Counted from the stretch's first letter, positions 2,252 through 61,635 are shown. The stretch is 63,391 nucleotides of DNA from an uncultured Planctomycetia bacterium (GCA_964629785.1 CAZVRU010000005.1:27225-90615); one strand, 5' to 3'. The notes: generated from the sequence alone by a model not told the origin. Program-made: numbers and translations.

Positions 2252-2303
2252 GCTATAAGCTGTCAGCCCGCCTTGCCGGTGAGGCAGGATGTCAGCCATG
2301 AGC
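2252..2303. repeat. Heptamer array with 22-bp REP-like palindrome
   Basis: CTATAAG CTGTCAG [CCCGCCTTGCCGGTGAGGCAGG 2267-2288] ATGTCAG CCATGAG. Confidence 0.8.
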
Positions 2304-2337
2304 CAGGTTTTGTCCTGCCAGCCTGATTTTACCAGCT

Positions 2338-2353
2338 TGAACCGCCCCGGTTC
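2338..2353 (+). repeat. 16-bp direct repeat, copy 1 (TGAACCGCCCCGGTTC)
   Basis: Exact match to 3379-3394; the pair flanks CDS 2438-3346. Confidence 0.8.
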
Positions 2354-2437
2354 GATCGGGCCCGATTTGTCTGGAGCGGATCGGCAAATGGCAGTATAAT
2401 ATTTTTAATATTTTCGGCATAAAAATCGGGAGGAATT

Positions 2438-3346
2438 ATGGTCCGCTACTTTATTTCTGTATTCCTTGTTATATTTTTAACATTTTTTTCCCTTCCTGCT
2501 TTTTGTCAGACCAACCAATCCGAAACCATAACCTTCACTACGTATTATCCGTCGCCTTTCGGGGTCTATAGACAGCTGCAGACGCAGACTTTGGGTGTCG
2601 GTGATACCAATTATGATTATGTGGTCGACAGTAACGACGTTCCTCCTGCGACCAGCCCCGGCGATGTCTGGATCGCAGGCCATGTCGGTATCGGTACCAA
2701 CAATCCGATCCGCGGGCTTACTGTTGTAGGAAGACAACTCCCCACGGATCCTGTTACAGGTCTTAGCTGTGACGGGGCCATTGGTTTATATCCGGAAGGG
2801 CCGAATGATTCTGCCGGCGTGGTTTTCGCTCAAAGTAAAGCAGACATGGAAAATTGTATAACTAACCGGGATGTGGCGTCTATAGGTATCGGCAATAGAA
2901 AAGGACATTTTGGCCGGGACGGCGTACCCGGCGATCTCAAGATCACTACTCGCAAAGGATATGACCTGCATTTTGTCACGCGTCAGCCAGGCCCTCCCGG
3001 GCCTACGCCCGCGCCAACGGCCATGATCGTAAAGAATAATGGCAATGTCGGTATCGGAAATTTAGATCCTCAGGCCAAACTTCACGTCGACGGTAATATT
3101 AGAGGGCAGTTGCAGTGCAGAGTAGTGCAGGGCCCCTGGAGAAAAGCAGGATCGACCGCCCATTGTGCTTCTGATGAATATGTAATATCTGGTGGCGGCA
3201 GCTGTCGCATATCGGCTAAGCAGCACGGATTTTTGCATGCCAGTTTCCCGGATGGCTTAAGCGGCTGGACAGCTGACTGTTATTCTTATAATTGGGGAAG
3301 TGATATTGATGTAAAAGCCTATGCTATTTGTTGTAAGAAAAATTAG
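2438..3346 (+). CDS. Secreted fibre/adhesin-like protein (TYYPSP N-terminal motif, G-x-VGIG repeats, Cys-rich C-terminal domain)
   Basis: GGGAGG SD, signal peptide ending LPAFC/Q, ITFTTYYPSPFGVY, GHVGIGT and GNVGIGN fibre-type repeats, C-terminal C...C..GGGSC...WTADC...AYAICC module. Confidence 0.75.
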   Translation: MVRYFISVFLVIFLTFFSLPAFCQTNQSETITFTTYYPSPFGVYRQLQTQTLGVGDTNYDYVVDSNDVPPATSPGDVWIAGHVGIGTNNPIRGLTVVGRQLPTDPVTGLSCDGAIGLYPEGPNDSAGVVFAQSKADMENCITNRDVASIGIGNRKGHFGRDGVPGDLKITTRKGYDLHFVTRQPGPPGPTPAPTAMIVKNNGNVGIGNLDPQAKLHVDGNIRGQLQCRVVQGPWRKAGSTAHCASDEYVISGGGSCRISAKQHGFLHASFPDGLSGWTADCYSYNWGSDIDVKAYAICCKKN

Positions 3347-3378
3347 CTTACCTCAATTTTTTTATGATAAAGATACTG

Positions 3379-3417
3379 TGAACCGCCCCGGTTCAAGCTT
3401 GAGGGTCGAACCAGGGC
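3379..3417 (+). repeat. 16-bp direct repeat, copy 2, extended into a hairpin
   Basis: TGAACCGCCCCGGTTC at 3379-3394; arm GCCCCGGTTC (3385-3394) pairs 9/10 with GAACCAGGGC (3408-3417). Confidence 0.75.
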
Positions 3418-3465
3418 AGAGTTTTTGTTAAGCCAGGATATAACTGCAACAAAGAAAGGATACAG

Positions 3466-3714
3466 ATGGCTGATCTGGTCGGTGTTTTAGCAGGCGTTTT
3501 GTGCGCGATATCTTTTTTCCCTCAGGTAATCAAGGTTTACCGGACAAAGCAGACTGCCGATCTGTCGATAGTAACTTTTTCCCTGTTTGCTGCCGGCATC
3601 GTGATGTGGCTGGTGTACGGATATCTCATGCACAGCCTCCCGATCATGCTGGCCAACGGCCTGATGCTCGCCTTTGTTGCGGCAATTGTCTTTGCCAAGA
3701 TCCGCTACCGATAA
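3466..3714 (+). CDS. SemiSWEET/PQ-loop family 3-TM transporter
   Basis: 82 aa, SFFPQVIKVYRTKQTADLS PQ motif, three hydrophobic helices, AAGGA SD. Confidence 0.85.
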   Translation: MADLVGVLAGVLCAISFFPQVIKVYRTKQTADLSIVTFSLFAAGIVMWLVYGYLMHSLPIMLANGLMLAFVAAIVFAKIRYR

Positions 3715-3781
3715 ATCTTGCTTTGCAAGCCGGAAAATCCTGTTATAATTAGATACTGAATTTCATTAAAAGGAGTCGAAA

Positions 3782-5293
3782 ATGAAGGTAATATTAGCAG
3801 GATTCAATGTCGATACCACGGTCTTAAATGAGCTGGAGAAAAGTGTTGGGAAGAGGGAAGACATCACGCCTGAGGTGCTGTCTGCTGCCTATGCCCGTAT
3901 CAGCCGCGATCCGCGGCCGGTCGATGAAATAAGAAAAGATGCCCGCAGTGAAGTTGAACGGTCCCGCAAGTCAAATTCCACGATCATTTTTAAAATGGGT
4001 CACCATTCGGTTGCCGAGCACGCAGTGTTCAATCTCGATGTTATCGGCGTATCCCGTTATGCCATGGAAGAACTGGAGAAGTTCCGCCTTTGTTCCTACA
4101 CGGAAAAATCCCAGCGTTATATTACTCTGGATAAAGATCATGTGATCCCTGCCGAGATCAAAGACACGGATCTGGAGAAGAAGTTCGTGTCCATGATCAA
4201 AGAACAGAACAAAGCCTATTTCGAATTTTTCGAAAAGCTTAAAGAATATGTATTCAAAAAATACTCTTGTCTGGCCGCAGATCCCAAAAATCATAATCTT
4301 CTCGAAGGATGGGCAAAAGAGGATGCCCGTTATATCACAGCCCTGGCTACCGAATCGCAGGCCGGTCAGACCATCAATGCCCGCAACCTGGAACTTTTAC
4401 TGCGGCGTTTCGCGTCTCATCCGCTCGATGAGGTGAGAAAACTGGGCCGGGCCATATATGAGCAGATCCATGAAGTAGCGCCTTCAATAGTCATTTTTCA
4501 TGAAGCCAATGACCGTGACCGGAATACTTATCCTGAATTGCAAAAACTGGCACGGGAATTGATAAAAGGCGCTTCTCCCAAGCCTGCTGCTTCATCCCAG
4601 GAAATACAGTTGGTCGAATATACTGCCGACGGCGATGCCCTGGTAGCGGCAGCCCTGCTGCACAGCGGTTCGGGGCTCACCTATGCCAAATGCAAGGATC
4701 TTATCGGCAATTTTTCCCAGGAAACCAAGGCCAGGATCTTTAAAGCTGCCTGGAAGAATATGCAGTTCTATGACACGATGCTGCGTGAATTCGAGTACGT
4801 CAATCTTACTTTCAATGTCGTGTTGTCGGCGGCCTGCTTCGGTCAGCTGAAACGCCACCGTATGTCCACGATAACTGCCCAGAACTATGATCCTTCTCTG
4901 GGCCTGACTGTTCCCGAATCGATAAAGGAAATAGGCGAAGATAAAAAATTCCTGGAGATCGCTGAAAAGAGCAGCGAGGTCTATGAAGAGATCAATAAGC
5001 GGTTTTCCCTGGCTGCGCCGTATATCCTTACCAATGCCCATCGTAAACGGGTATTGATGAGGCTAAATGCCCGGGAGTTGTACCATGTTTCGCGTCTGCG
5101 GGAAGATGCCCATGCCCAGTGGGATATACAGAATGTTTCCCGGTCGATGATCGATCAGGCCAAAAAGATCATGCCGCTTACCTTTGCTCTGGCCGGCGGC
5201 AAAGACCGCTATAACGATATTTATCAAAATATATTCGGGACATTGCCCAGGGTAACGCAGGTTGAATTACCCCGGGCCCGCACCATTAAATAA
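3782..5293 (+). CDS. thyX: FAD-dependent thymidylate synthase, tandem two-domain form
   Basis: GHHSVAEH, RLCSYTEKSQRY and NARNL in the first half; LKRHRMST and NARELYH...AQWDI in the second half; 503 aa. Confidence 0.85.
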   Translation: MKVILAGFNVDTTVLNELEKSVGKREDITPEVLSAAYARISRDPRPVDEIRKDARSEVERSRKSNSTIIFKMGHHSVAEHAVFNLDVIGVSRYAMEELEKFRLCSYTEKSQRYITLDKDHVIPAEIKDTDLEKKFVSMIKEQNKAYFEFFEKLKEYVFKKYSCLAADPKNHNLLEGWAKEDARYITALATESQAGQTINARNLELLLRRFASHPLDEVRKLGRAIYEQIHEVAPSIVIFHEANDRDRNTYPELQKLARELIKGASPKPAASSQEIQLVEYTADGDALVAAALLHSGSGLTYAKCKDLIGNFSQETKARIFKAAWKNMQFYDTMLREFEYVNLTFNVVLSAACFGQLKRHRMSTITAQNYDPSLGLTVPESIKEIGEDKKFLEIAEKSSEVYEEINKRFSLAAPYILTNAHRKRVLMRLNARELYHVSRLREDAHAQWDIQNVSRSMIDQAKKIMPLTFALAGGKDRYNDIYQNIFGTLPRVTQVELPRARTIK

Positions 5294-5416
5294 CTGCCTG
5301 CCTTTTTTTGCCGGATAAAAATAAGCAAAGCATTTCTTGATTACTCGCGTAGTTTTGCTAAAATTTGTTTAGATCACGGAATCTCTGCGGCAATTTTTTT
5401 TATCTGACGGTAGAGT

Positions 5417-7897
5417 ATGGAAAAGAAAAAACGTAGTCCCAGCTGGGTCAATATTTACAAAGACATGAGCGCTGCCGGTCTGAAGCGGTCCTTTCTTGCC
5501 CGGCGTCAGTATTCCCTGGCCAAAGACGATTATGCCGCTACTCTGAACGACGATTTCATGGCACTGGCCATTGCCGTGCGCGACCGGCTTATTGAAAGAT
5601 GGATCAATACTCAGCAGAAATATCACCGTGAGAACGTGAAGCGTGTCTATTATCTCTCCATGGAATTTCTCATCGGCCGTTTGCTGGGTAACAATATTAT
5701 GAACCTGCAGATATGGGGAGAGGCTGCCGCGGCTATGGAAGAATTGGGCCTGAATCTCGAAGACCTGAGGGACTGCGAAGCCGATGCCGGATTGGGTAAC
5801 GGCGGACTGGGCCGGCTTGCCGCCTGCGTGCTTGATTCTCTGGCGACTCTGGGGATACCGGCCGGAGGTTACGGCATACGTTATGAGTACGGCCTGTTCA
5901 ATCAGAAAATCGTCAACGGTTACCAGGTAGAATCCCTGGATGAGTGGCTTAGTAAAGGGAATCCCTGGGAGTTCCCCCGCCAGGAATACACGGTACGGGT
6001 GAAGTTCTACGGTCATACCTATATGTTCCGCGATGCCCAGGGAAAGCTGCGCGTCAAGTGGGTCGATACCGAGGATGTCCTGGCCATGCCTTATGATATA
6101 CCGGTTGCCGGTTACAACAATGATGTGGTAAATAACCTTCGTTTATGGTCGGCGCGCAGTACCGAGGAATTCGATCTTCAGTATTTCAATTACGGCGATT
6201 ATGAAGGAGCTGTATATAAAAAAGTGCTTTCCGAAAATATCACCAAAGTACTTTATCCCAATGACACAGTAAATCCGGGCAAAGAATTACGTTTAAAACA
6301 GGAATATTTTCTCACGGCTGCTTCGATAGCCGATATTATCCGCCGCTTTAAGGCCGAGAACCACGATCTGAGAGATTTTCCGGAAAAAATAGCGATCCAG
6401 CTCAATGATACTCATCCTTCACTGGCCATAGTGGAATTTATGCGCGTACTTGTAGATGAAGAAAATATCGACTGGGATACTGCCTGGGATGTGACAGTGC
6501 GGACTTTCGCCTACACTAATCATACTGTAATGCCCGAAGCCCTGGAATGCTGGCCGATACCGCTGTTCGAAGCGATACTGCCCAGACATATGCAATTGAT
6601 ATATGAGATCAACATGCGTTTTCTGCGCCGGGTGTCCCGCCTTTTCCCCGGGGATAATGACCGGCTGCGCCGCATGTCGATCATCGAAGAAGGCATTCCC
6701 AAGAAAGTACGCATGGCCCATCTTTCCATCGTGGGCGCGCATTCGGTAAACGGCGTTTCGCTCATGCACAGCGAGCTGCTGAGAAAAGATATTTTTCGTG
6801 ATTTTAACGATGTTTTTCCTGAACGTTTCAACAACAAGACCAACGGTGTGACCCCGCGCCGCTGGCTGCGTAAGACCAATACCCGTCTTTCATCTCTGAT
6901 CAGCGAAGCTATCGGAGACAAATGGGTCACTGATCTGGGAGAACTGCAGAAACTTTCCCGGTTTGTCGACGACAGTTCTTTCTGTCAGAAATGGCAGGAA
7001 GTCAAAAAAAGTAACAAAAAAGATTTTGCCGGATATATACGCAAGACTACGGGGATAGAGATAAATCCGGAATCGATTTTCGATGTCCAGGTAAAGAGGA
7101 TCCACGAGTATAAACGGCAGGCATTGTTCGGTCTGTTCATTATCTCGCAGTATCTAAAATTGAAAAAAGACCCTGCCGCGCCGTTTATCCCCCGCACCTT
7201 TATCGTGGGCGGCAAAGCTGCGCCTGGCTATATCATGGCCAAATTGATAATAAAATTTATCAACAATATCGCCGACGCGGTAAATAACGATCCGCTGGTA
7301 AAAGATAAGCTGAAAGTAGTTTTTGTCGAGGATTACCGTGTATCGGTTGCCGAAAAAATATTCCCGGCCACTGACCTTTCCGAGCAGATTTCCACTGCCG
7401 GCACCGAAGCGTCGGGTACCGGCTGCATGAAGATGATGATCAACGGTGCTTTGACCATCGGCACCTATGACGGGGCAAACATGGAGATGGCCGGGGCCGT
7501 AGGCAGCGATAATATTTTCATGTTCGGCCGGAAAGCGCCGGAATTAAGAGCCCTGCGGGAAAAAGGATATGATCCCCGCCGTTATATCGAAAACAACGAA
7601 ATACTGCGGGAAGTGGTAAGATTGATCCAGCATAACTTTTTTTCCCCGGTGAACTATAATCTGTTCGCTCCCATAGTAGGCAGTATCTACGATAACGATC
7701 CTTTTTTTATCTGCGCCGATTTCGAAAGTTACTGCGCGGCGCAGGAAAAGGTTTCCGGGGTCTATGCCGACCAGGCTCTCTGGACAAAAAAATCGCTCAT
7801 CAATGTTTCCTGCTCCGGACCTTTTTCCATTGACCGCACCGTACGGGAATATGCCCGCGATATCTGGAATTTACCGGTGCCTTTTCTTTCCCGCTAG
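5417..7897 (+). CDS. glgP: Glycogen/starch phosphorylase
   Basis: GLGNGGLGRLAAC, LNDTHP, YTNHT, QVKRIHEYKRQ, EASGTGCMK (PLP lysine). Confidence 0.97.
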   Translation: MEKKKRSPSWVNIYKDMSAAGLKRSFLARRQYSLAKDDYAATLNDDFMALAIAVRDRLIERWINTQQKYHRENVKRVYYLSMEFLIGRLLGNNIMNLQIWGEAAAAMEELGLNLEDLRDCEADAGLGNGGLGRLAACVLDSLATLGIPAGGYGIRYEYGLFNQKIVNGYQVESLDEWLSKGNPWEFPRQEYTVRVKFYGHTYMFRDAQGKLRVKWVDTEDVLAMPYDIPVAGYNNDVVNNLRLWSARSTEEFDLQYFNYGDYEGAVYKKVLSENITKVLYPNDTVNPGKELRLKQEYFLTAASIADIIRRFKAENHDLRDFPEKIAIQLNDTHPSLAIVEFMRVLVDEENIDWDTAWDVTVRTFAYTNHTVMPEALECWPIPLFEAILPRHMQLIYEINMRFLRRVSRLFPGDNDRLRRMSIIEEGIPKKVRMAHLSIVGAHSVNGVSLMHSELLRKDIFRDFNDVFPERFNNKTNGVTPRRWLRKTNTRLSSLISEAIGDKWVTDLGELQKLSRFVDDSSFCQKWQEVKKSNKKDFAGYIRKTTGIEINPESIFDVQVKRIHEYKRQALFGLFIISQYLKLKKDPAAPFIPRTFIVGGKAAPGYIMAKLIIKFINNIADAVNNDPLVKDKLKVVFVEDYRVSVAEKIFPATDLSEQISTAGTEASGTGCMKMMINGALTIGTYDGANMEMAGAVGSDNIFMFGRKAPELRALREKGYDPRRYIENNEILREVVRLIQHNFFSPVNYNLFAPIVGSIYDNDPFFICADFESYCAAQEKVSGVYADQALWTKKSLINVSCSGPFSIDRTVREYARDIWNLPVPFLSR

Positions 7898-8061
7898 TTA
7901 AAAGAGTGACAGTCTGATGATCAAATCCTGCGCCGGTCCGGAAAAGAGTTTTTTTGTGACTATTCGGCGTAAAGAAAAAACGGTTACCGGCAAAGAGGGT
8001 GTTGAATTAAAATAAAAAAAGGAGTATTATTATAAAAAGTTGTCTAAAAGGGGCACGGGGA

Positions 8062-8277
8062 ATGTATAAAAAATTGTATGCCTGTACTCATATCGGCGAA
8101 GCTGATATCATTGTGTCGCTGTTGAAGCGTAACGGATTCAATCCTTCGGAATTTTATACCTCCTGCCTTCCCGGGATCCTCGATGATGAACAGTATTATT
8201 ATGTAAAGATACTCGAGGAAGAATATCCCCAGGCAAAAGATTTTTTGGCCCGGCAGGGGTTTCCGAATTCGGTGTAA
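8062..8277 (+). CDS. Small protein, DUF2007-like putative signal transducer
   Basis: 71 aa, AAGGGG SD, EADIIVSLLKRNG...VKILEEEYPQAKDFL pattern typical of this ferredoxin-like family. Confidence 0.6.
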   Translation: MYKKLYACTHIGEADIIVSLLKRNGFNPSEFYTSCLPGILDDEQYYYVKILEEEYPQAKDFLARQGFPNSV

Positions 8278-8368
8278 TCGCAAAACAGCTTTTTAAAGGC
8301 GGATATCTGAGAAATCGCCGGCTTTCGGAACAGTCTGCAAACGATCTGCCGCGAAAGGAGTATTTATC

Positions 8369-8884: not shown

Positions 8885-8960
8885 GACGTCCGTTTTGTCC
8901 TTCGGCAAGCTCAGGACACGCTAAGACGTTCGCTCCCCGCGGTCGCTAAGACGAAGGAGG
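8881..8960. repeat. Intergenic heptamer/palindrome mosaic
   Basis: GTGAGAC GTCC, GTCCTTCGGCAAGCTCAGGAC, then a 36-bp unit (8919-8954) 35/36 identical to 1732-1767. Confidence 0.85.
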
Positions 8961-8967
8961 GTATAAG

Positions 8968-9486: not shown

Positions 9487-9598
9487 ACAGGGGATAAGTG
9501 GAGATTGAAAATATTGCTGTAAAATAGTAAGATAAAAGTGGTCAGTACAGAAATAAGAGCAGCAGGCAGGGATATGATAATCTGAAAGGAGGGGTTCG

Positions 9599-9925
9599 AT
9601 GGGAGAAGTTCTGGTTGTTTTATTGTGGATCGCAGTCTATGCTTTTTTTGCCTTTTGTCTGCAGACCATTGCTGCCAAGACAAATACGGCCAATGCCTGG
9701 CTGGCCTGGATACCGATCGCCAATCTGGTGCTGATGTGCCAGATCGCCGGCAAACCTGTATGGTGGCTGATTCTTTTTTTAATCCCGTTTGTCAATATCA
9801 TTATCCTGCTGATTGTCTGGATGGCCATTGCCGAAGCGTGTAAAAAACCGTCCTGGATAGGTGTGCTGATGATCGTGCCTCTGGCCAACCTGGCGATCCC
9901 TGCTTATCTTGCTTTTGCCGATTAA
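9599..9925 (+). CDS. Small membrane protein (DUF5684-like)
   Basis: AWLAWIPIAN...KPVWWLILFLIPFVN...LMIVP signature, 4 TM. Confidence 0.7.
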   Translation: MGEVLVVLLWIAVYAFFAFCLQTIAAKTNTANAWLAWIPIANLVLMCQIAGKPVWWLILFLIPFVNIIILLIVWMAIAEACKKPSWIGVLMIVPLANLAIPAYLAFAD

Positions 9926-9937
9926 AGATCTATAGCG

Positions 9938-9969
9938 AAATGCCCCCTGCCCGGCAGGGGGCATTTTTT
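9938..9969 (+). terminator. Intrinsic terminator
   Basis: Perfect 13-bp stem AAATGCCCCCTGC-ccg-GCAGGGGGCATTT running into a T tract. Confidence 0.8.
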
Positions 9970-9988
9970 CAACAGACAAGGAGCAGTT

Positions 9989-10222: not shown

Positions 10223-10524
10223 TTTTTCTGCCTGTTTCCGCCTGCCCGGGCCGGTAAAAAAAGTTAAAAAAAGACGGCATTTTGCCGATAATTATAATAG
10301 AGGGGAAAAACGTTTTTGAAGAAAAAGGACATTGAAAATCAAGGTATTTTGAATTATGAGCAGGATCGCCGCTGCCGGCTGTCAATATTCTGTCGTCTCT
10401 ATCACATTCCACTTTGTAAAAAGAGGGTGCTTCAAACCTTGTGAGGGGGGGGTACCCTCTTTTATTTTATCCCCGTTTTCTGGTACAATAATACCGATAA
10501 ATCAGGTAAATCAAGAGGTGCAAC

Positions 10525-13664: not shown

Positions 13665-13916
13665 ATGGACGCTGAACAGCAGAAAATAACCGAACTGGCC
13701 GAACAGAACATAAAGATTTCCCGCGCCCTGATGGATATTGCCGAGGCAGTGAAAAAGCTGGATATGGTCATCAGCGTTTTATCGGAAAAAACCGCGGTCA
13801 ATACCTCGATCATCGAAAATATACTGAAAGAAAAACTTCACCTGTCGCAGCCGGAAATAAATGTGTTGCTGGAAGAGGCCCGGCAAAATTACCGGCAACA
13901 GGGACAGACCGGCTGA
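13665..13916 (+). CDS. Hypothetical coiled-coil protein
   Basis: 83 aa, GAGGA SD, heptad-like amphipathic helices. Confidence 0.6.
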   Translation: MDAEQQKITELAEQNIKISRALMDIAEAVKKLDMVISVLSEKTAVNTSIIENILKEKLHLSQPEINVLLEEARQNYRQQGQTG

Positions 13917-14051
13917 CTACGGTTGTTGTTCTGAGCTGCACCATCTGGACTATCTTTCCCGTACAGAATATTTGATTGAAATCGCAGAGGTTGTTATCCC
14001 CGGAAAAGAGGGTGGCTGTAGCGGTATATTGTAGAAAAAAGGAGGTGGGTG

Positions 14052-15620: not shown

Positions 15621-15870
15621 AATTTAGTCGATAGTCGATGGCCGATAGTCGATAGTAGAAATGAGAAGATGAGAAATGAGTTGGGAGTCAGGAGTTCGGA
15701 GTAGAAAATTTTTACGCGTCCTTCGTCCCTCATCCCAGCGCAGTGGTCGTTTCACGTCTTACGTTTTGGCTAAGAGCTAACAGCCTGCCTCGCGGCAAGG
15801 CGGGCCAAGAGCTAAGAGCCGGAGCGCGCCGTAGGCGGCTTTCGGACTCTCTGCTCTCTACTTTTGGAAA
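15621..15870. repeat. Large intergenic heptamer/palindrome mosaic
   Basis: TAGTCGA x5 degenerate (15625-15659), ATGAG-type units, GGAGT-type units, CGTCCTT/CGTCCCT, CTAAGAG units split by CCTGCCTCGCGGCAAGGCGGG (15784-15804), CGCC-GTA-GGCG (15827-15837), CTCTCTG/CTCTCTA. Confidence 0.9.
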
Positions 15871-31389: not shown

Positions 31390-31515
31390 GGGTGTAGGGG
31401 TTAGCGGTCAGGGGTTAGGGCCGCACTTCGTGCGGAAGGGAAAATATATTAACTCTTTACTTGTAACTTGTAATTTTTTTCTGTAAACCATCGACTATAG
31501 ACTATCGACCATAGA
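31390..31515. repeat. Heptamer mosaic between pgk and tpiA
   Basis: GGGTGTA GGGGTTA GCGGTCA GGGGTTA, hairpin CCGCAC-TTC-GTGCGG (31421-31435), TACTTGT AACTTGT, CCATCGA CTATAGA CTATCGA CCATAGA (31488-31515). Confidence 0.88.
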
Positions 31516-31550
31516 CGTATAACGAAGATACATTAAGAAGGAGAGAACAG

Positions 31551-35399: not shown

Positions 35400-35612
35400 G
35401 ATAAATGTCAGACGTGAGACGTCCGTCCTGCCCGCCATTTTCAATGGCGAGGCGGACTAAGACGAAGGACGATACCGCTTTGCGGAGTTATAAATTATGA
35501 ATTAGAGTATTGTCAATGGTCGATAGCCGATAGTAAGAGACATGCCATTTAAATTATAATCGCCATCGACAATAGACCATAGACTGTCGACTGTAAACTG
35601 CCGAAGGCAAAA
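35400..35612. repeat. Heptamer mosaic between oppB and oppC
   Basis: GTCAGAC GTGAGAC, CCTGCC[CGCCATT-TTC-AATGGCG]AGGCGG (35427-35455), TAAGACG AAGGACG, CCGC-TTT-GCGG, TGGTCGA TAGCCGA, CCATCGA/CCATAGA/CTGTCGA run, TGCC-GAA-GGCA (35599-35609). Confidence 0.88.
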
Positions 35613-36676: not shown

Positions 36677-36829
36677 TCGTATATAGTTTACCCCACATTT
36701 CCCTGTGGGTAATAACGGATACTGCGTGCGGAAGCGCGCCGAGGATAAAATATAAGAAAAATAAAAGGACGCGAGGATCAAGTATCTAACATCTTTCTCT
36801 CTACTCTCTACTTGCTACTCGCTACTTTT
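36674..36829. repeat. Heptamer mosaic between oppC and oppD
   Basis: CCCACA-TTTCCC-TGTGGG hairpin, then CTCTCTA CTCTCTA CTTGCTA CTCGCTA CTTTT (36797-36829). Confidence 0.8.
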
Positions 36830-53102: not shown

Positions 53103-53285
53103 CGTTTAGGGGCCGGGGGTCAGGCCCGTCTTGCCGGCGAGGCAGGGTTGCGACTGCGTCGCAGAAAAGGATTAATATGGATAAATTTTGAGAGAGATGG
53201 TTAATAACAATATAAAGCGTAATATGTATCTGGAATTTTTTTTTAGCGGGGCTTAACCCTAAACCCTATCCGCTATCCGCTATAA
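53093..53285. repeat. Heptamer mosaic between ispD and ispF
   Basis: G-rich arm TAGCGTT TAGGGGC, 22-bp palindrome 53125-53146, GCGAC-TGC-GTCGC (53150-53162), AT-rich core, C-rich arm AACCCTA AACCCTA TCCGCTA TCCGCTA (53255-53282). Confidence 0.88.
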
Positions 53286-53298
53286 CCTGTATTTGATT

Positions 53299-53781
53299 AT
53301 GGACGACTACAGAATAGGAACCGGTTTCGACGTACACAGATTCGCAGAGAAAAAAGAAGGAGATCTGATTTTGGGCGGCATAGTGATCGACAGCCCTTAT
53401 TCTCTGGAAGCGGTATCTGACGGAGATGTGGTGCTTCATGCTGTCTGCGACGCGCTATGCGGCGCTGCCGGCCTGGGAGATATAGGGGACATGTTCCCGC
53501 CTGAGGACAAGGCCAGCGCCGGAATATCGAGCCTGCAAATCGTTAAGGCTGTTCAGGAAAAAGTAAAGGATAAATACGTTATGGTCAATATGGATATCAC
53601 GATCATAGCCGAAAAGCCGCGTCTTTCCGGGCAGAAAGAGGCGATGACCGGTTCTCTGCAAAATATTTTTTCTGCGAATGAGGTCAATATAAAGATAAAA
53701 TCGAAAGAAGGGCTGAACATACTGGGCGGCAGTGAGGCTATCGCCTGTATGGCCACAGTGCTTTTAAAAAAGAGGGGATAG
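53299..53781 (+). CDS. ispF: 2-C-methyl-D-erythritol 2,4-cyclodiphosphate synthase
   Basis: RIGTGFDVH, SDGDVVLHAVCDALCGAAGLGDIG, NIK.KS.E. Confidence 0.95.
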   Translation: MDDYRIGTGFDVHRFAEKKEGDLILGGIVIDSPYSLEAVSDGDVVLHAVCDALCGAAGLGDIGDMFPPEDKASAGISSLQIVKAVQEKVKDKYVMVNMDITIIAEKPRLSGQKEAMTGSLQNIFSANEVNIKIKSKEGLNILGGSEAIACMATVLLKKRG

Positions 53782-53822
53782 CGTTTAGCGATTAGCGTTT
53801 AGGGTTGCCTGCAATGCAGGCA
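53779..53822. repeat. Heptamer array after ispF
   Basis: TAGCGTT TAGCGAT TAGCGTT TAGGGTT (53779-53806), then TGCCTGC-AAT-GCAGGCA. Confidence 0.88.
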
Positions 53823-53922
53823 AAAAATGTTCTGAATACTTGTTGCTTTTAGTAATTAGAAATTTATTTCCTGTCGCCATGTCACCCTCTGACTTGTCGA
53901 CTATACGAAAAAAGGAAGGGAT

Positions 53923-55386: not shown

Positions 55387-56018
55387 AAAAGAAAAAAGGA
55401 TTTTTCGTCACGGTCGAGGGACTGGAAGGAAGCGGCAAAAGCAGTGTCATCGTGTTTCTGGAAAAGTATCTGAAAAAGCAGAAACTTTTGGTAAAAGTGT
55501 TCCGTGACCCCGGTTCTACCAAAACCGGCGAAATGATCCGGGATATTCTTCTGGCCAATAAAAGCAAAGTATCGGCCCAGACCGAATTGTTGTTGTACCT
55601 GGCTGCCCGCAGCCAGCTTATCGAGGAAAAACTGCTGGCCGCTTTCAAAAAATATGATGTGGTTATCTGCGACCGGTTTTACGATTCGACTATCGCCTAT
55701 CAGGGATACGGTCTGGGCCTGGGCAAACTGGCCGAAGAGGGGGCTTTGCTGTTCAACCGGGGAGTCGTTCCCGATCTGACCCTGCTTCTGGAAAGCGACG
55801 TGAAAAGGTCTTTGAACCGCATCAAAAATAAGGACCGCATCGAAAGCCGTCCTTTTGTTTTCCATAATAAGCTGAAAAAAGGATTTGCCGCCCTGGCTTG
55901 TAAAAATAAAGACCGGATAAAGGTCATTCCGGCTGATTCGAACCTGGACGAGATATACAAACATGTTTCGCTCAGCGTAGATAAATATCTGAAGAAATGG
56001 AAGCTCATCAAAAGATAA
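55383..56018 (+). CDS. tmk: Thymidylate kinase
   Basis: EGLEGSGKS, DRFYDST.AYQG, PDLT, DRIE. Confidence 0.95.
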   Translation: MKKKKGFFVTVEGLEGSGKSSVIVFLEKYLKKQKLLVKVFRDPGSTKTGEMIRDILLANKSKVSAQTELLLYLAARSQLIEEKLLAAFKKYDVVICDRFYDSTIAYQGYGLGLGKLAEEGALLFNRGVVPDLTLLLESDVKRSLNRIKNKDRIESRPFVFHNKLKKGFAALACKNKDRIKVIPADSNLDEIYKHVSLSVDKYLKKWKLIKR

Positions 56019-56785
56019 TAGATTATTTTTCTTTTCTGAAAAAGAAAGACTGTATTTCTTTTTCCTATCTTTTTACCGGCAAAGATCTGCTGGAGATAAG
56101 CCGGACCGTGGCCAGAGTGGTCAATTGCCGGGAAAGCGATACATTTTGCGGTAACTGTCCTGCCTGCCGGGATCTAAAGAGGGATGTCTCGGCCGATATT
56201 ATGATCGTCGATGAGCCGCTATCCATAAAGATAGAGCATATCCGTCAGGCCCAGCGTTTCCTGAGCTTAAAGACAGTAAATACGGAACGTAAGGTGCTGA
56301 TCATCAATAATGCCCATACCATGGGCGAAGAAGCAGCCAATGCTTTTTTAAAGACCCTGGAAGAGCCGCCGGCGCATTCCCTGATCATTCTTCTGACCAG
56401 CCGTCTGGACAGTATTCTGCCGACGATAATCTCCCGCTGCCGTAAACTTTACTGCCCGGCGCCGGATGAGTACTGTTTTTCCGACCGTTCTCTGATGGAA
56501 AAATTTATTTCCCAGAGCAGGCTGAAGCTTAAAGAACGGGTGGCAGCCGAGGGCCTTTTTTCCGATCTGATTGTCTTTCTGAGAGATAGGATTATTTACC
56601 GGATCACGGGAGAGAGAAAGAAGTTGCTTGAGCCCGGCAGTTATGAGATAATTTTACCTTCAGAGGACACCCCTGAAGTGCTTATCGGCCAGCTTGAGCA
56701 GGCTTTGGAATTATACAATGAACTGGATACCATAAATCTTAATCTGGCCGGAAATATCATGCAGGCAGCTCTTACCTCTTGTTGA
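55997..56785 (+). CDS. holB: DNA polymerase III delta' subunit (short, divergent)
   Basis: CGNCPAC, IKIEHIR, AANAFLKTLEEPP, LPTIISRC; position tmk-holB-PSP1. Confidence 0.85.
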   Translation: MEAHQKIIDYFSFLKKKDCISFSYLFTGKDLLEISRTVARVVNCRESDTFCGNCPACRDLKRDVSADIMIVDEPLSIKIEHIRQAQRFLSLKTVNTERKVLIINNAHTMGEEAANAFLKTLEEPPAHSLIILLTSRLDSILPTIISRCRKLYCPAPDEYCFSDRSLMEKFISQSRLKLKERVAAEGLFSDLIVFLRDRIIYRITGERKKLLEPGSYEIILPSEDTPEVLIGQLEQALELYNELDTINLNLAGNIMQAALTSC

Positions 56786-56877
56786 TCCGGTATAAAGACG
56801 ATCAGGCATCCCGGAGAAGGCAGACAATAAGCTGCCGGACCGGTCAGTCAGGGCGAAGATAAAGGCGGTGAACAAAG

Positions 56878-57654
56878 ATGAGAATAGCGATAGTACGTTT
56901 AAGAGAGGCAGGAAACATCGGTAATTATATCGCCACTGACGATATAAGGCCCGGGGCTCTGGTCATTGTGGAAGGAGACCGGGGAGTAGATTACGGGGAA
57001 GTATTGGAGATATTCGAGGAAGACAAGAAAGTCAATTTCAAGAAGATAGTAAGAGTAATGAGCCCCGAGGATAATAAGCAGATCAGGGACAACGAGAAAC
57101 AGGCAAAAGACGCATTGCAGATATGCAGCCGTAAGGTGCGCGAACATAAGCTTAATATGAAGCTGGTCGAGGCCGAATATTCTTTCGACCGCAAAAAGAT
57201 AATATTTTATTTTACTTCCGAAGGCCGGATCGATTTTCGGGAACTGGTCAAAGATCTGGCAAAAATATTCAAGATACGCATCGAGATGCGCCAGATCGGC
57301 GTTCGTGACGAAGCCCGTTTGTTCGGAGGGGTCGGCCCCTGCGGACGGCCGCTGTGCTGCGTGAGATTTTTGAAGAATTTCGAACCGGTAAGCATCAAAA
57401 TGGCCAAAACCCAGCGACTTCCTCTCAATCCCTCGAAAATATCCGGCATTTGCGGACGTCTGATGTGCTGTCTGTTTTACGAATACAAGAATTACAAAGA
57501 ACTTGCCAAAGGACTTCCCAAGGAAGGTCAGGTGGTCCAGACCGGCAGAGGCAAGGGCAAAGTGATCGCAGTAAACGTATTAAAACGGCAGGTCTATGTC
57601 AATCTGGAAGACGGATGCATAGAAAAGGTCAGTTATCCGCAGAAAGATGAATAA
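56878..57654 (+). CDS. PSP1/YaaT (RicT) family protein
   Basis: RIDFRELVKDLA, RIEMRQIGVRDEA, CGR.LCC, KISG.CGRLMCCL.YE. Confidence 0.93.
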   Translation: MRIAIVRLREAGNIGNYIATDDIRPGALVIVEGDRGVDYGEVLEIFEEDKKVNFKKIVRVMSPEDNKQIRDNEKQAKDALQICSRKVREHKLNMKLVEAEYSFDRKKIIFYFTSEGRIDFRELVKDLAKIFKIRIEMRQIGVRDEARLFGGVGPCGRPLCCVRFLKNFEPVSIKMAKTQRLPLNPSKISGICGRLMCCLFYEYKNYKELAKGLPKEGQVVQTGRGKGKVIAVNVLKRQVYVNLEDGCIEKVSYPQKDE

Positions 57655-59176
57655 AGCTTATATCACTACGCCTCTTTATTATGTCAACGGTTCTCCCCAT
57701 ATAGGACACGCCTACAGTACTATCTGCGCCGATACTTATGCCCGCTTTAACCGGCTGTGCGGCCGCGAAGTCTTTTTTCTTACCGGTACTGACGAGCACG
57801 GTGAAAAGATACGCAAAGCTGCCGAGGCATCCGCTAAAGAGCCCCGCGAGTTTGTCGACGCGATCGTGGAAAATTTCCGGGATCTCTGGAAAACCCTGGA
57901 TATCTCATATGATTTCTTCATTCGTACCACGGACCGGGATCATGTCTCGGTAGTACAAAAAGCGGTTCAAAACCTTTATGAGAAAGGGGATATCTATAAA
58001 TCGGTGTATACAGGATATTATTGTGTGCACTGCGAGTCTTTTTTCAGCGAATCGCAGGTGAAAGATTCGGGCTATCTCTGCTGTGACTGCAAACGTCCTC
58101 TGGAAGAAATAGAAGAAGCCAATTATTTTTTCCGTTTATCCAGATATGAGCAATGGCTCACTGATTATTTAAAGGATAACCCCGGTTTCATTTTTCCCGC
58201 GATACGTTACAACGAAGTGACCGGATTTCTCAAAAACAACCGTCTTGATGATCTCTGCATTTCCCGTCCCAAAAAAAGGGTCAGCTGGGGCATAGAACTT
58301 CCTTTCGACACCGATTATATAATCTATGTCTGGTTCGATGCTTTGCTTAACTATATCAGCGCTCTTGGTTACGGGAGCGGGGAAAAGCGATTCGAAAAGT
58401 GGTGGCCGGCTGATGTTCAGTTCATGGCCAAAGATATTTTGCGTCAGCATGCGGTGTTCTGGCCGGTCATGCTTCATGCTCTGGGTATCGATCCGCCGCG
58501 TCTGGTCTGTGCTCACGGCTGGTGGCTGGTAAAAGAAGAGAAAATGTCCAAATCAAAAGGCAATGTAATCAATCCCTATGATCTGGTAAACGAATTCGGC
58601 AGAGATGCTTTGCGCTATTTTCTTCTGCGGGAGATTTCTTTCGGCATGGACGGAAGTTTTTCCCGTCAGGCTCTGATCAGCCGGATCAATTCCGACCTGG
58701 CCAATGATCTGGGTAATCTGGTGTTCAGAGTGCTGAATATGGCCGAGAAATATTTTTCCGGCCGGCTGGCCTCTTCCCGTACCGACATCCCCGAAGTTTT
58801 CAAAATCTATACCGAAAGCCTGGCCGAAAAATACGCGGCCCGGATGGAATCTCTTGATTTTTCCGGGGCTCTGGAAGAGGTGTGGAATTTCGTCAAGGTC
58901 ATGAATAAATTCATAGAAGACACCAAACCCTGGGCATTATGGAAAGAAAAAAAGCAGGACGAGCTGGCCTGGTTCATGCGTTCTCTGGTCGAAGGCATAA
59001 AGATAGTAGCGGTTTTGATCTCCCCGGTCATGCCCGATACCGCTTTTTCGATTTTTCGGCAGATCGGCAGCCCGCGGGAAAAGACCGGATTAAAGATCGA
59101 AGATGCCCGATGGACTTCGGCTGAATACAGGATCAGCAAAGAGGCCCCTTTATTTCCCCGGATAGATGTTGATTGA
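57647..59176 (+). CDS. metG: Methionine--tRNA ligase (short monomeric form)
   Basis: PHIGHAY, TGTDEHG, YVWFDAL, KMSKS; no C-terminal tRNA-binding domain. Confidence 0.96.
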   Translation: MNKAYITTPLYYVNGSPHIGHAYSTICADTYARFNRLCGREVFFLTGTDEHGEKIRKAAEASAKEPREFVDAIVENFRDLWKTLDISYDFFIRTTDRDHVSVVQKAVQNLYEKGDIYKSVYTGYYCVHCESFFSESQVKDSGYLCCDCKRPLEEIEEANYFFRLSRYEQWLTDYLKDNPGFIFPAIRYNEVTGFLKNNRLDDLCISRPKKRVSWGIELPFDTDYIIYVWFDALLNYISALGYGSGEKRFEKWWPADVQFMAKDILRQHAVFWPVMLHALGIDPPRLVCAHGWWLVKEEKMSKSKGNVINPYDLVNEFGRDALRYFLLREISFGMDGSFSRQALISRINSDLANDLGNLVFRVLNMAEKYFSGRLASSRTDIPEVFKIYTESLAEKYAARMESLDFSGALEEVWNFVKVMNKFIEDTKPWALWKEKKQDELAWFMRSLVEGIKIVAVLISPVMPDTAFSIFRQIGSPREKTGLKIEDARWTSAEYRISKEAPLFPRIDVD

Positions 59177-59927
59177 TACTCATTGTCACATCAATTCTCT
59201 GGCTGACGACCGGATCGATGAGCTTCGCGCCATCAGTCCGGAAGATAAAATTTTTGTCGATGTAAGTATCGACCCTCATTCTTCGGAAAGATCCCTGGCT
59301 CTGGCCGGCTCGATGCCCTGTGTTTATTCCTGTCTGGGCTTTCATCCTTTCAGTATTGATCAATATCAGGAAAAAACAGCGGAAAAATATGCCGGATATA
59401 TCCGCAATAACAGTAAGGTGATCGGTATCGGTGAAGTAGGCCTTGACTGCACGGCATCGTTTGCCATGGAAGATCAGGTGAAGATACTGGAAAAGTTCAT
59501 CGATCTGGCCGGGCAGAACCAACTGCCCCTGGCGATCCATAACCGTCTAAATTCTTTTTTGATCTTCGAGGTGCTGGACCGGTTTATGAAGACTTATGAT
59601 AAGGTAGTGTTCCATTGTTTTTCCCAGGACAGTGAATTCCTGCGGCGGATAATCGACAAGAACGGTATGGTATCTTTTTCTCTGAACATCCTGCGCCGCA
59701 AAAAAAAGATCGTCGATGCCCTGCAAGAGATACCGCTGGATAATCTTATCCTGGAGACCGATTCTCCTTATATGAGGATCGAGGGACAGCCTTCGCATCC
59801 CCTGGATATCGAAAAGGTATATGAGTTTGTGTCCCGGGAAAAAGACCTTGAACGAGCGGCACTGGAAAAGAAGATAAGGGAAAACGTCAGCCGGATATTC
59901 AGGATACAGGCAGAGGACAGGAAGTAG
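59166..59927 (+). CDS. tatD: TatD family nuclease
   Basis: DTHCH, GFHP, IGEVGLD, IHNR, FHCFS, LETDSPY. Confidence 0.93.
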   Translation: MLIDTHCHINSLADDRIDELRAISPEDKIFVDVSIDPHSSERSLALAGSMPCVYSCLGFHPFSIDQYQEKTAEKYAGYIRNNSKVIGIGEVGLDCTASFAMEDQVKILEKFIDLAGQNQLPLAIHNRLNSFLIFEVLDRFMKTYDKVVFHCFSQDSEFLRRIIDKNGMVSFSLNILRRKKKIVDALQEIPLDNLILETDSPYMRIEGQPSHPLDIEKVYEFVSREKDLERAALEKKIRENVSRIFRIQAEDRK

Positions 59928-60290
59928 AGGGTAGCCCTTCGACTTCGCTCAGGACAAGCAAGTAGAGAGTAGAGGGTAGAGAGTAGAGGGTAGAGGGTAG
60001 AGAGTGCCGCCTGCGGCACAGATCGAAGGACGAGGGATGACCGCTTCGCTAAGACGAGGGATGAGAAAAAATCGCAAATTGCAACCTGCCTCGACGGCAA
60101 GGCGGGAATCAGCATTGCAAAATGAGATATGAGAAGAGGAGAGATGAGAAATGAGTTTGGAGAAAGAAGAGTATTCTCTTTCAATTTATAACTCATGATT
60201 CATAATTTAAGTATTGACTATCGGCCATAGACCATCCCGATGCTGCGTTCGGGACGAGTAGACTATCGACCATGTATAGATATCGACTGA
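59920..60290. repeat. Composite heptamer/palindrome element upstream of mtnA
   Basis: CCCTTCGACTTCGCTCAGG, GTAGAG(A/G) x6 (59962-60003), GCC-TGC-GGC, GAAGGAC/GAGGGAT units, 22-bp palindrome 60085-60106, ATGAGA units, CATAATT units, CTATCG/CCATAGA units. Confidence 0.92.
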
Positions 60291-60312
60291 GAGTTAAAGA
60301 GAGAAATAAACT

Positions 60313-61365
60313 ATGCGAGCGATAAAGTTCAGAAATAACAGGCTGTTTTATCTGGATCAGACTTGTTTGCCGGTCAGAGAGGTATGGCAGGAGTGCCGCT
60401 CTCTGTCGGATGCGGTAGAGGCGATCAGACAACTTAAAGTGCGGGGCGCGCCGATGATCGGTGTGTTTGCCGCCTATTCTTTATATATCGCGGTTCGCGA
60501 TCGCCGGGACGAGTCGCCGGCTTCTCTTTTGAAGTATTTCGATAAAGCCTGTACTGCTTTGATCAAAAGCCGGCCTACGGCAGTAAATCTGGCCTGGGCT
60601 GTGGAAAGGGTTCGCGAAGCAGCAAAATCCTGCCGTAAGGAAAAAGTAAAAAAAGTGATCTCTACGGTTATCAGCGAGGCCAAGGCGATCGATCATCAGG
60701 ATGTAAAGCTTTGCGCCGCTATCGGTAAATATGGGCTAAAGCTTATCCGTTCCGGCGATGTTCTGCTGACCCACTGCAATGCCGGCCTTCTGGCCACTGC
60801 CGGTAACGGCACGGCTTTAGCGGTGATCTATGAGGCGGCCAGAAAGTTTAAAAATATCAGGGTCTATGCCGACGAGACAAGGCCGCTGCTGCAGGGAGCC
60901 CGTCTGACCTGCTGGGAACTTATGAAGAACAAAGTCGGGGTCACGCTTATCTGCGATAACATGGCTGCCGATCTCATGCGCCGCGGTCTGATCGATAAAA
61001 TAATCGTGGGCGCGGACCGGATCACGGCTCAGGGTGACGTAGCCAATAAGATCGGGACCTACGGTCTGGCAGTTAATGCTTTTTATCATAAAGTGCCTTT
61101 TTATGTGGCAGCCCCTTTTTCCACCTTTGATCTGACTATCGATAAGGGGGAAGATATACCTATCGAACAGCGCAGTGCCGGTGAAGTGCGCCGGATACTG
61201 GGAAAGCTTGCTGTTGCTCCCAGGGAAGTTCCGGTATATAATCCGGCTTTTGATGTGACGCCGCATAAGCTGATCACGGCTATTATTACCGACCGGGGCA
61301 TTATCAGGCCGCCGTTCAGTAAGAATATCAAAAGAATATTTTCGAATAAAAAAAGTGATATTTGA
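60313..61365 (+). CDS. mtnA: S-methyl-5-thioribose-1-phosphate isomerase
   Basis: VRGAP.IG, SRPTAVNL, THCNAG.LAT, ETRP.LQGARLT, ANKIGTY, NPAFDVTP. Confidence 0.95.
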   Translation: MRAIKFRNNRLFYLDQTCLPVREVWQECRSLSDAVEAIRQLKVRGAPMIGVFAAYSLYIAVRDRRDESPASLLKYFDKACTALIKSRPTAVNLAWAVERVREAAKSCRKEKVKKVISTVISEAKAIDHQDVKLCAAIGKYGLKLIRSGDVLLTHCNAGLLATAGNGTALAVIYEAARKFKNIRVYADETRPLLQGARLTCWELMKNKVGVTLICDNMAADLMRRGLIDKIIVGADRITAQGDVANKIGTYGLAVNAFYHKVPFYVAAPFSTFDLTIDKGEDIPIEQRSAGEVRRILGKLAVAPREVPVYNPAFDVTPHKLITAIITDRGIIRPPFSKNIKRIFSNKKSDI

Positions 61366-61368
61366 TGA

Positions 61369-61635
61369 GGAAGTAGCGGGTAGCCCTTCGACAGGCTCAG
61401 AACAAGCGGGTAGAGAGACCCGCCTGCGGCGCAGAAGTAAAAAGAAAAAAGGCAAAAGGCACTTGGGAAATTGCAAATTGTAAATTGTAACCTGCCTCGA
61501 CGGCAAGGCGGGAATTAGCATTGCAAAATTAAGATATAAGAAATGAGAGTATTCTCTTTTCAATTCATGACGCATAATTCGCAATTCATAATTTAAGTAT
61601 TGGCTATCGACCATCGACTATAGATTATAGACAAT
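61369..61635. repeat. Composite heptamer/palindrome element downstream of mtnA (homologous to 59920-60290)
   Basis: CCCTTCGACAGGCTCAGAAC, GCC-TGC-GGC, AAAAGG units, AAATTG units, 22-bp palindrome 61491-61512, CATAATT units, CTATCGA CCATCGA CTATAGA units. Confidence 0.92.

Follow-up and report, generated by a model that had tools for sequence, protein, structure and literature searches.

A probable ultra-small mobile DNA hairpin of 21-22 nucleotides found in several bacterial phyla

How small can a piece of DNA be and still move? The question is raised by a 63,391-nucleotide stretch of an uncultured bacterial chromosome (CAZVRU010000005.1:27225-90615, deposited as Planctomycetia; hereafter the window, with positions counted from its first nucleotide), in whose spacers one GC-rich hairpin of 21-22 nt, CCTGCCTCG(A)CGGCAAGGCGGG, recurs. 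We call this element M. We found that M is gained or lost as an exact unit without target-site duplication and that it reaches high copy, and we consider it probable that M belongs with the small dispersed repeats, as an ultra-small mobile DNA hairpin without autonomy.

Allowing up to three mismatches, the window contains exactly five copies of M, all at the places reported in the initial annotation (Table 1) and with none in addition, whereas 100 shuffles predict zero. All five are intergenic. M has three main variants, two of 22 nt with the loops GAC and GCC and a 21-mer with the loop GC, and the arms are invariant. The element folds into a 7-bp stem, including one G.T pair, that closes a loop of 7-8 nt. 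Its description as an imperfect palindrome is borne out in that the hairpin forms, but the palindrome is a modest one and energetically ordinary (folding z of -0.6 to -1.9 relative to shuffles), and in the copy at 53125-53146 a G-to-A change disrupts one of the stem pairs. As RNA, M forms a stable hairpin of about -10 kcal/mol. Perfect extension of the stem by at least 5 bp into the flanks was observed 11 times and expected ~4 times from a shuffled-partner control, an excess so modest that we rejected the idea of M as just the end of some longer hairpin that is conserved. The bases bordering M are a purine at -1 in 79% and a pyrimidine at +1 in 86% of cases, with little or no preference at the outer positions. 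M matched no Rfam family; at the gathering threshold the whole window yields three tRNAs only, and a permissive scan of one spacer gave a chance ylbH hit as its sole match. In the literature, the sequence of M matched only unrelated eukaryotic papers. CGCGGCAAGGCGG appears to resemble in part a conserved 23S rRNA stretch, CGCGGCAAGACGG, a likeness that is probably coincidental.

The initial annotation had further stated that removing M restores the register of the heptamer arrays around it. We joined the flanks of each copy without M, counted lag-7 matches over 21 positions and compared the result with all intergenic junctions. For two copies the statement stands. Excision of exactly 21 nt at 15784-15804 gives CTAAGAG CTAACAG CCAAGAG CTAAGAG, with 17/21 lag-7 matches (top 0.7% of intergenic junctions), and excision of 2267-2288 gives 14-16/21 (top 3%). 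In both, the register is optimal only when a length equal to that of the copy itself (21 and 22 nt, respectively) is removed, a clear indication that no target duplication accompanied insertion. For the copies at 60085 and 61491, however, the register is weak (10-13/21, and best with 23-24 nt removed), and the copy at 53125, with 9/21 matches after excision, lies in no heptamer array. Period-7 arrays hold the other four window copies (15784, 2267, 60085 and 61491), in three heptamer backgrounds and not four as first counted, since 60085 and 61491 are both in NAAATTG. These two have ~30 nt of flank in common (AAATTGYAA-M-AATYAGCATTGCAAAAT), as well as one spacer plan, and so are not independent. 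They are the closest pair in the window, 1.4 kb apart and in direct orientation, and the window copies are singletons. The copy at 60085 is part of a longer repeated unit, AAATTGCAA-M-AATCAGCATTGCAAAAT. A sixth copy, interrupted by an insertion, had been proposed at 35427-35455; it has only the arms, the M loop TCGACGGCA being absent and another perfect hairpin (CGCCATTttcAATGGCG) standing in its place. This structure folds at -10.6 kcal/mol (z -4.1) and is a relative or chimera, not M with an insertion.

M is not confined to these few spacers. In the source run, a marine-sediment metagenome and the only run found to contain the sequence, k-mer depth summed over the M core is ~6068, compared with ~35-40 for single-copy sequence, and Logan contigs of the run end at M, including at 60085. 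This depth suggests ~150 copies, a number to be read with caution because the sample is a metagenome. Approximately a quarter to a half of them share some AAATTGCAA / AATCAGCAT flank, so that in the window genome M also travels inside a longer unit. Beyond the source run, the exact 22-mer is found at 65 loci of species-representative genomes, where ~0.07 are expected by our own calculation for 596 Gb, and a relaxed pattern with a free loop of 2-4 nt is found at at least 117 genome loci. The contexts of M are distinct, 168 in all with unrelated flanks, and the host loci have a median GC content of 41%. By record title, the matches listed include many classes of Patescibacteria, several groups of Bacteroidota (Flavobacteriaceae, Lentimicrobiaceae, Bacteroidales and Ignavibacteria), Omnitrophica RBG_13_46_9, Elusimicrobiales, Ratteibacteria, Bdellovibrionales, Bacteriovorax and metagenome-assembled genomes (MAGs) of Gammaproteobacteria; no cyanobacterial and no Rickettsia record is among them. 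Two cultured flavobacteria carry M, Flagellimonas sp. S174, with a complete genome, and Gangjinia marincola JCM 16082. Carriage by phage was considered and rejected: only three viral contigs matched, two of which look like chance coding matches. The contrary picture, of copies that are rare genome-wide and always travel with the same flanks, is not what the depth and the variety of contexts show, although two window copies do share a flank.

Genes, too, contain M. When the three main variants are counted at loci with no more than 55% GC, 13/36 of the 21-mers and 4/100 of the 22-mers fall within long open reading frames (ORFs; odds ratio 13.6, p = 5e-6), which shows that the 21-nt (3n) variant passes the reading-frame selection filter in permissive protein loops. 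The hosts of an in-frame 21-mer are genuine genes, which encode the CCA-adding enzyme (cca), an M14 peptidase, a GT4 glycosyltransferase, DnaX, RecN/SMC and LeuRS. M is read there as PASRQGG, LPRGKAG or RLAARQ, and these peptides fall at gap or variable-loop positions of homologues.

This contrast between variants bears on whether M is a product of chance or artefact (adapter, chimera or mis-binning). Some matches do look fortuitous: by our own calculation the relaxed pattern should match ~13 times by chance in 596 Gb, odd-loop matches in the high-GC coding DNA of Streptomyces, Mesorhizobium and Pannonibacter are probably of this sort, and 30 of the 49 metagenome matches to the hairpin-junction pattern discussed below are not composites. 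The exact 21- and 22-mers, however, exceed expectation by orders of magnitude, M is internal to contigs of many independent assemblies and isolates, and artefact cannot explain why 21-mers and 22-mers differ inside ORFs. On these three grounds we reject chance and artefact for the three main variants and give them a negligible probability.

Sites with and without M can be compared directly. In Flagellimonas sp. S174 a site downstream of a conserved 191-aa gene is filled and reads ...CTTCCTTGTTTTCGATA[M]CAATTTTCTT... (L173); the orthologous site in F. flava DSM 22638 (L177) reads ...CTTCCTTGTTTTCGATAC-GATTTTCTT..., an exact 22-nt gap with a 1-nt ambiguity at the boundary. Across 80 orthologous loci M is present in only three, in one of which five substitutions show that old copies decay, and it is absent from the other 77. 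A second pair is provided by L005 (Saccharibacteria), where a 98-aa GIY-YIG gene has an intact hairpin, GTCATTCCCGCGAAAGCGGGAATCCAG, on one side and the same hairpin with M' inserted after GTCATTCCCG on the other. With the exact-length excisions at 15784 and 2267, the Flagellimonas gap and the L005 hairpin pair support the absence of target-site duplication claimed in the initial annotation. Its view that M moved independently of its flanks is likewise upheld by the 168 contexts, the high copy number, the clean filled and empty sites and the in-frame 21-mers.

The same comparison speaks to whether M might be immobile, a terminator, mRNA stabiliser or protein-binding site kept by selection. REP elements are known to have been co-opted as functional cis-elements, and the intergenic position of M in the window, its stable RNA hairpin and its invariance across phyla would all suit such a role. 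Yet M is missing from 77/80 orthologous sites and decayed at one, is absent from the syntenic relative L170, lies in frame in unrelated proteins, belongs to no Rfam family and has no T-tract. Its orientation relative to flanking genes is also unbiased (19 sense, 23 antisense), and convergent gene ends are not enriched (12, compared with 13 divergent). These results speak against an RNA role of the terminator type and do not hint at strand-specific insertion. A cis-acting role as the sole explanation is thus largely refuted and in our estimate very improbable; secondary co-option of some copies is possible.

M lands where insertion is tolerated. In the window genome this means heptamer-array spacers: many window spacers consist of short arrays of differing heptamers mixed with small GC-rich hairpins, and the number of array-bearing spacers there and in L170 makes them a place where a neutral insertion can survive. 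A preference for such arrays had been put forward as a trait of the element. It holds only in the window genome: outside the window, strong period-7 arrays hold just 3/168 copies (L033, L121 and L164), so the preference is not general but a property of a genome whose spacers are full of arrays. In other phyla M lies in the loops of Ssn-related hairpins, at the centres of palindromes that resemble miniature inverted-repeat transposable elements (MITEs; L001, L026 and L031, including a Bdellovibrionales MAG) and, as the 21-nt variant only, in protein loops. In Omnitrophica RBG_13_46_9, Lentimicrobiaceae and Ratteibacteria it is also part of longer repeats that are specific to the genome.

The hairpins that host M deserve particular attention. 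NTS and Ssn-related motifs (SRMs) are hairpins of 20-50 nt, repeated hundreds of times and in many phyla, which flank the genes of small single-domain GIY-YIG nucleases, the site-specific ssDNases termed Ssn, and are cut by them as single-stranded DNA (ssDNA) (Chenal et al. 2025, PMC11893778). The GTCAY hairpins in which we find M match NTS or Ssn-related motifs. In 39 matches (16 and 23 in the two orientations, which are not mutually exclusive) no more than 30 nt separate M from a GTCAY head, compared with ~10 by chance, an approximately fourfold excess. Moreover, the hairpin position and orientation seen in L005 recur in L092 (Kerfeldbacteria) and L134 (Falkowbacteria), and 19 metagenome composites with M at that hairpin position comprise ~15 distinct flanking contexts and several M loop variants, one of them holding a third nested hairpin. 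It is conceivable that an uncharacterised Ssn clade has M as its cognate motif, or that M enters, as a passenger, SRM hairpins that have been cut or repaired, and the fixed position of M within NTS-like SRMs, which in L005 and L092 stand directly beside a 95-98-aa GIY-YIG gene, would fit either version. M adjoins the gene in those two loci, however, only as an insert in a canonical NTS-like SRM. It resembles SRMs as a small hairpin repeat found across phyla and is physically nested in them, but it has no GTCWY head and falls outside the SRM consensus HGTCWYN(0-2)YYVSBRHN(0-5)WNVSBRGN(0-2)RNCYNB (PMC11893778), a guest in SRMs and not a motif flanking ssn. The window has no SRM, its single match to this consensus being at chance level and inside a gene, and no GIY-YIG ORF among the ORFs tested. 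Small GIY-YIG genes occur in only 5/165 M loci, approximately the background density by our own estimate, and near only 4/19 SRM::M composites. NmSsnA cleaves upstream of the hairpin and not in its loop (PMC11893778), and a nuclease alone cannot account for copying. We regard an Ssn link as quite unlikely.

Slippage-prone arrays and hairpin apices as targets are also what might be expected if M spread with no enzyme of its own, by replication template-switching, gene conversion between hairpin or repetitive sites and hitch-hiking in larger repeats. The 4-nt microhomologies at the SRM junction (CCCG/CCCG) and the presence of M within longer repeated units in several genomes are consistent with this. 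Most M junctions, however, have no microhomology, copy-choice would not readily yield insertions into unique coding sequence or a unit of exact length at unrelated sites, and arms that are identical across phyla imply sequence-specific recognition. We regard enzyme-free spread as quite improbable.

The enzyme favoured by the initial annotation was of the HUH/Y1 kind, with M as a repetitive extragenic palindrome (REP)-like hairpin moved on replication-fork ssDNA by a REP-associated tyrosine transposase (RAYT) or an IS200/IS605-type tyrosine transposase. Y1 transposases make flush ssDNA joins, and M inserts without target-site duplication, forms a hairpin and favours hairpin-forming or slippage-prone DNA. 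The proposal nevertheless lacks support. The window showed no Y1-like ORF, and a crude screen for the HUH...Y motif, applied to 2,052 ORFs near 165 M copies, likewise detected none. No target tetra- or pentanucleotide is conserved, the only bias being 1 nt on each side; M is one hairpin and not two subterminal ones; inverted REPIN doublets of M are absent from the window; neither strand is favoured with respect to gene orientation; and M occurs inside genes and is identical across phyla, unlike the lineage-specific REP/RAYT pairs. On balance, we judge HUH/Y1 mobilisation to be unlikely. Nor did an autonomous parent element emerge from L023, where the DNA between two copies of M carries recR and sugar-kinase genes and no transposase.

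With what, then, should M be compared? To our knowledge, the small dispersed repeats (SDRs) of Nostoc are the only described class of elements this small and were thought to be confined to one cyanobacterial family, and we know of no enzyme or mechanism proposed for SDR4-6 since 2008. SDR4-6 of Nostoc and Anabaena were reportedly set out by Elhai et al. 2008 (Genome Res 18:1484). As described in part by papers that cite this work (PMC3116915, PMC2884548, PMC5861425), SDR4-6 are hairpin-like, highly repeated sequences of 21-27 nt that lie within tandem arrays of heptamers and within mini-transposons, and an orthologous site may have or lack them. Among the HIP1-enriched cyanobacteria examined, no SDR-like repeat was found outside Nostocaceae (PMC5861425). 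Compared by description only, these repeats would be the closest architecture to M, which resembles them in size (21-22 nt), in repetition (5 copies/63 kb, ~150 by depth), in its location in heptamer arrays and MITE-like centres and in its presence or absence at orthologous sites (exact 22-nt gap, 3/80 loci). M differs in belonging to another sequence family, in its non-cyanobacterial hosts, in being identical in several phyla, in lying in frame in genes and in being nested in Ssn-related hairpins.

The other known systems are more distant. REPs and REPINs mobilised by RAYTs are short imperfect palindromes that are extragenic, high-copy, non-autonomous, set in mosaics with other repeats and inserted without target-site duplication; REP/RAYT pairs are confined to their lineage and pass by vertical inheritance, each RAYT gene is bordered by its own REPs, and REPINs are inverted doublets (PMC3116915). 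M shares the short imperfect palindrome, the high copy number, the absence of target-site duplication and the lack of autonomy, but in the window it occurs as singletons and not as inverted doublets, it is neither only extragenic nor lineage-specific, and no RAYT gene flanked by M was found in the window or in the crude screen near 165 copies. IS200/IS605 elements likewise use ssDNA hairpin substrates and insert flush without target duplication; their requirements are a TnpA gene, a pair of unlike subterminal hairpins and a target tetra- or pentanucleotide that is fixed (see 10.1101/279083). M shares with them the absence of target-site duplication, but has no fixed target, a single hairpin and no tnpA bracketed by copies, the L023 pair enclosing housekeeping genes. 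In-frame insertion is a trait of Rickettsia palindromic elements, selfish palindromic repeats of ~100-150 bp that are found in Rickettsia only and lie in frame at permissive sites of proteins; they are said to have been described by Ogata et al. 2000. M adds peptide segments in the same manner, but at 21 nt it is some six times smaller and it occurs in several phyla. Yeast mitochondrial GC clusters are short GC-rich palindromes in AT-rich spacers, occasionally in frame in genes and of unknown mechanism; they differ from M in being organellar and eukaryotic, 30-50 bp long and of other sequence families. For REP/REPIN-RAYT, IS200/IS605 and SRM, M fails the defining tests wherever these were run.

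Several findings count against M as a mobile hairpin of the small-dispersed-repeat kind. The empty-site search suggested by the initial annotation succeeded at the Flagellimonas orthologous site but not for the window copies: no empty allele of any of them was found in L170, whose spacers are unalignable, or in run X2, which gave fragments only, and metagenome searches for a filled or empty pattern of the ispD-ispF copy returned nothing. Filled and empty pairs, moreover, cannot separate insertion from precise excision. M at one SRM-hairpin site could reflect the spread of a composite SRM::M and not repeated targeting, and the common flank of two window copies means that some spread is by block duplication or within larger units, composites of M being found also in Omnitrophica RBG_13_46_9, Lentimicrobiaceae, Bdellovibrionales and Ratteibacteria. 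Taxa are named here as in the MAG records, and the letter identity of M across phyla is unlike the lineage-specific REP/RAYT systems. Finally, no enzyme is apparent. To the negative Y1 screen we add that no transposase, HUH or GIY-YIG ORF was found among the window ORFs tested and that all-against-all clustering of the 2,052 ORFs of 165 loci showed no protein family enriched near M, the recurrent families being housekeeping ones (response regulators, LeuRS, ABC transporters and GatB/YqeY).

Taking M as a mobile hairpin, its movement may be pictured as follows. M would be recognised by sequence, because its arms are invariant while its loop varies among GAC, GCC and GC. It would be mobilised in trans by an enzyme not encoded beside it, one that probably acts on single-stranded or extruded-hairpin DNA, and it would be joined flush and not staggered. 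Candidate enzymes are an HUH/Y1 transposase, a small GIY-YIG ssDNA nuclease aided by repair, or something else; the weight that we do not give to HUH/Y1, Ssn or enzyme-free spread falls to an enzyme not yet considered. A fuller reading is more tentative, and we hold it at slightly less than even: M may be an undescribed 21-22-nt mobile element of several phyla, among the smallest known, whose identical arms in Omnitrophota, Patescibacteria, Bacteroidota, Bdellovibrionota and Gammaproteobacteria would imply machinery that is conserved or promiscuously transferred across phyla, or else a shared template. On this fuller reading it would invade Ssn-hairpin loops, be tolerated by essential genes (dnaX, cca, recN and leuS) as an insert of 7 residues and be one family among nested "hairpins within hairpins" that are largely unannotated.

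Table 1. Copies of M, its arms-only relative and associated heptamer arrays in the window
Feature	Position	Strand	Context
M copy, 22 nt (CCTGCCTCACCGGCAAGGCGGG on minus strand), one mismatch	2267..2288	-	heptamer array (CTGTCAG / M / ATGTCAG) upstream of ORF 2438-3346
M copy, exact 21-nt variant (CCTGCCTCGCGGCAAGGCGGG)	15784..15804	+	in CTAAGAG array, radC / Na/H exchanger gene spacer
CTAAGAG heptamer array hosting and interrupted by M	15770..15818	.	radC / Na/H exchanger gene spacer
Arms-only relative: CCTGCC / AGGCGG enclosing another, 17-nt perfect hairpin (CGCCATTTTCAATGGCG)	35427..35455	+	oppB-oppC spacer
M copy, 22 nt (CCTGCCTCGCCGGCAAGACGGG on minus strand), one mismatch	53125..53146	-	ispD-ispF spacer, outside heptamer arrays
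M copy, exact 22-mer	60085..60106	+	CAAATTG background, tatD / mtnA-like gene spacer
AAATTGY heptamer array 5' of M copy 61491	61468..61490	.	Tandem Repeats Finder period 7, 3.3 copies
M copy, exact 22-mer	61491..61512	+	TAAATTG background

The window is a housekeeping stretch with almost all genes on the plus strand, among them tRNAs, thyX, glgP, radC, gap-pgk-tpi, the opp operon, aspS, clpC, ispDF, cysS, metG and mtnA. The best named relatives of its triose-phosphate isomerase are from Omnitrophota, and by this protein the chromosome appears Omnitrophota-like. L170 has 74% identity to the window organism in the same enzyme, and no M across 20 kb. The 503-aa window ORF 3782-5293 contains two ThyX (Thy1) stretches and is apparently a tandem-domain flavin-dependent thymidylate synthase.

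Heptamer arrays lie at 15625-15680, 31459-31521, 35563-35584, 36797-36827, 53266-53283, 53779-53806, 59961-60005, 60122-60155 and 61468-61490 of the window, and L170 has arrays of other units at 9904-9983 and 13831-13949. Arrays of this sort, here in an Omnitrophota lineage, resemble the short tandemly repeated repetitive (STRR) arrays known from filamentous cyanobacteria and, in Beggiatoaceae, the TAACTGA repeats. A second small GC-rich element (CCCTTCGACTTCGCTCAGGACAAGC and relatives) breaks heptamer arrays too, at 59935-59959 (GTAGAGG/AGTAGAG), with similar elements at 61378-61401 and 8898-8918 and a composite at 1801-1857. Read in frame, the CCCTTCGACTTCGCTCAGGACAAGC element gives peptides such as FDFAQDK, and FAQGKP-type peptides recur in the variable loop of Levybacteria CCA-adding enzymes (P0122, P0125, P0128, P0130, P0137, P0139 and P0152); these look like products of the window CCCTTCGAC... 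element, which suggests another gene-entering family. A third small unit, GTTCGCTCCCYGCGGTCG, stands between direct CGCTAAGACG repeats in two spacers (1741-1758 and 8928-8945), and the two copies, with their common flanks, may be a block duplication. The consecutive spacers 59928-60312 and 61366-61663 follow one modular plan: a stop codon, GTAG-type heptamers with the CCCTTCGAC element, next a CCGCCTGCGGC hairpin, then AAATTG heptamers with M and GAGTATTCTCTTT(T)CAATT...TAATTTAAGTATTGRCTATCG. The tail of this plan is partly found again at 35491-35530, and the plan as a whole looks like a shared promoter or leader module.

Elsewhere, M has further company. The ORF of a Portnoybacteria GT4 glycosyltransferase contains a CAAGATA heptamer array with M inside it (..RYKIPASRQGGQDTRYKH..), and CAAGAWA heptamers flank M in two Ratteibacteria loci as well (these loci being L121 ~2560-2650, L118 ~6470-6560 and L164). 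All three M copies of Omnitrophica RBG_13_46_9 (L082, L087 and L122) lie in one longer repeat, TTAACCCGCCTTCGCG-M-GAATTCCCC..., where an upstream CCCGCCTT can pair with the 3' AAGGCGGG of M to form an extended hairpin. The Flagellimonas/Allomuricauda spacer ~300 nt 3' of the matched gene (L173-L188) ranges from bare to a mosaic of GTCAY-headed hairpins (e.g. GTCACTTCGAG...TATCGAGAAGTG) whose presence and nesting vary between species, and a related 24-nt family, CCTGCCCGTTCCGGTCAAGGCGGG, is found in L184, L011 and L028. In L276 (~9619-9700), an NTS-like hairpin holds M' followed by a small hairpin (CTTGCCCTCGTGAAAACGAGGG) before the closing arm, a triple nesting. The non-composites among L253-L301 are nearly all one recurring sequence (..CTCATTCCCGCCCGCCTTGCCGCAGGGGAATCA..), seemingly unrelated to M; 21-nt patterns yield family-specific false positives.

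M tests the lower size limit of mobile DNA. What is new in M is its sequence family, its non-cyanobacterial hosts, the letter-identical arms across phyla, the in-frame copies in essential genes and the nesting in SRMs; the cross-phylum identity and the coding insertions are unexpected. The occurrence of an identical 22-mer in several phyla makes the question of how so small an element moves a general one that can be tested by comparative genomics, through a gene family that tracks copy number, and the cultured flavobacteria that carry M make experiments possible. M-like elements also have practical consequences. They break short-read assemblies, and M adds spurious-looking peptides (PASRQGG, LPRGKAG and RLAARQ) to real proteins of the candidate phyla radiation (CPR) and creates "hypothetical" mini-ORFs. 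Elements of this kind could mark recent horizontal exchange, and the nesting of M in Ssn-related hairpins links it to a newly found class of ssDNA nucleases.

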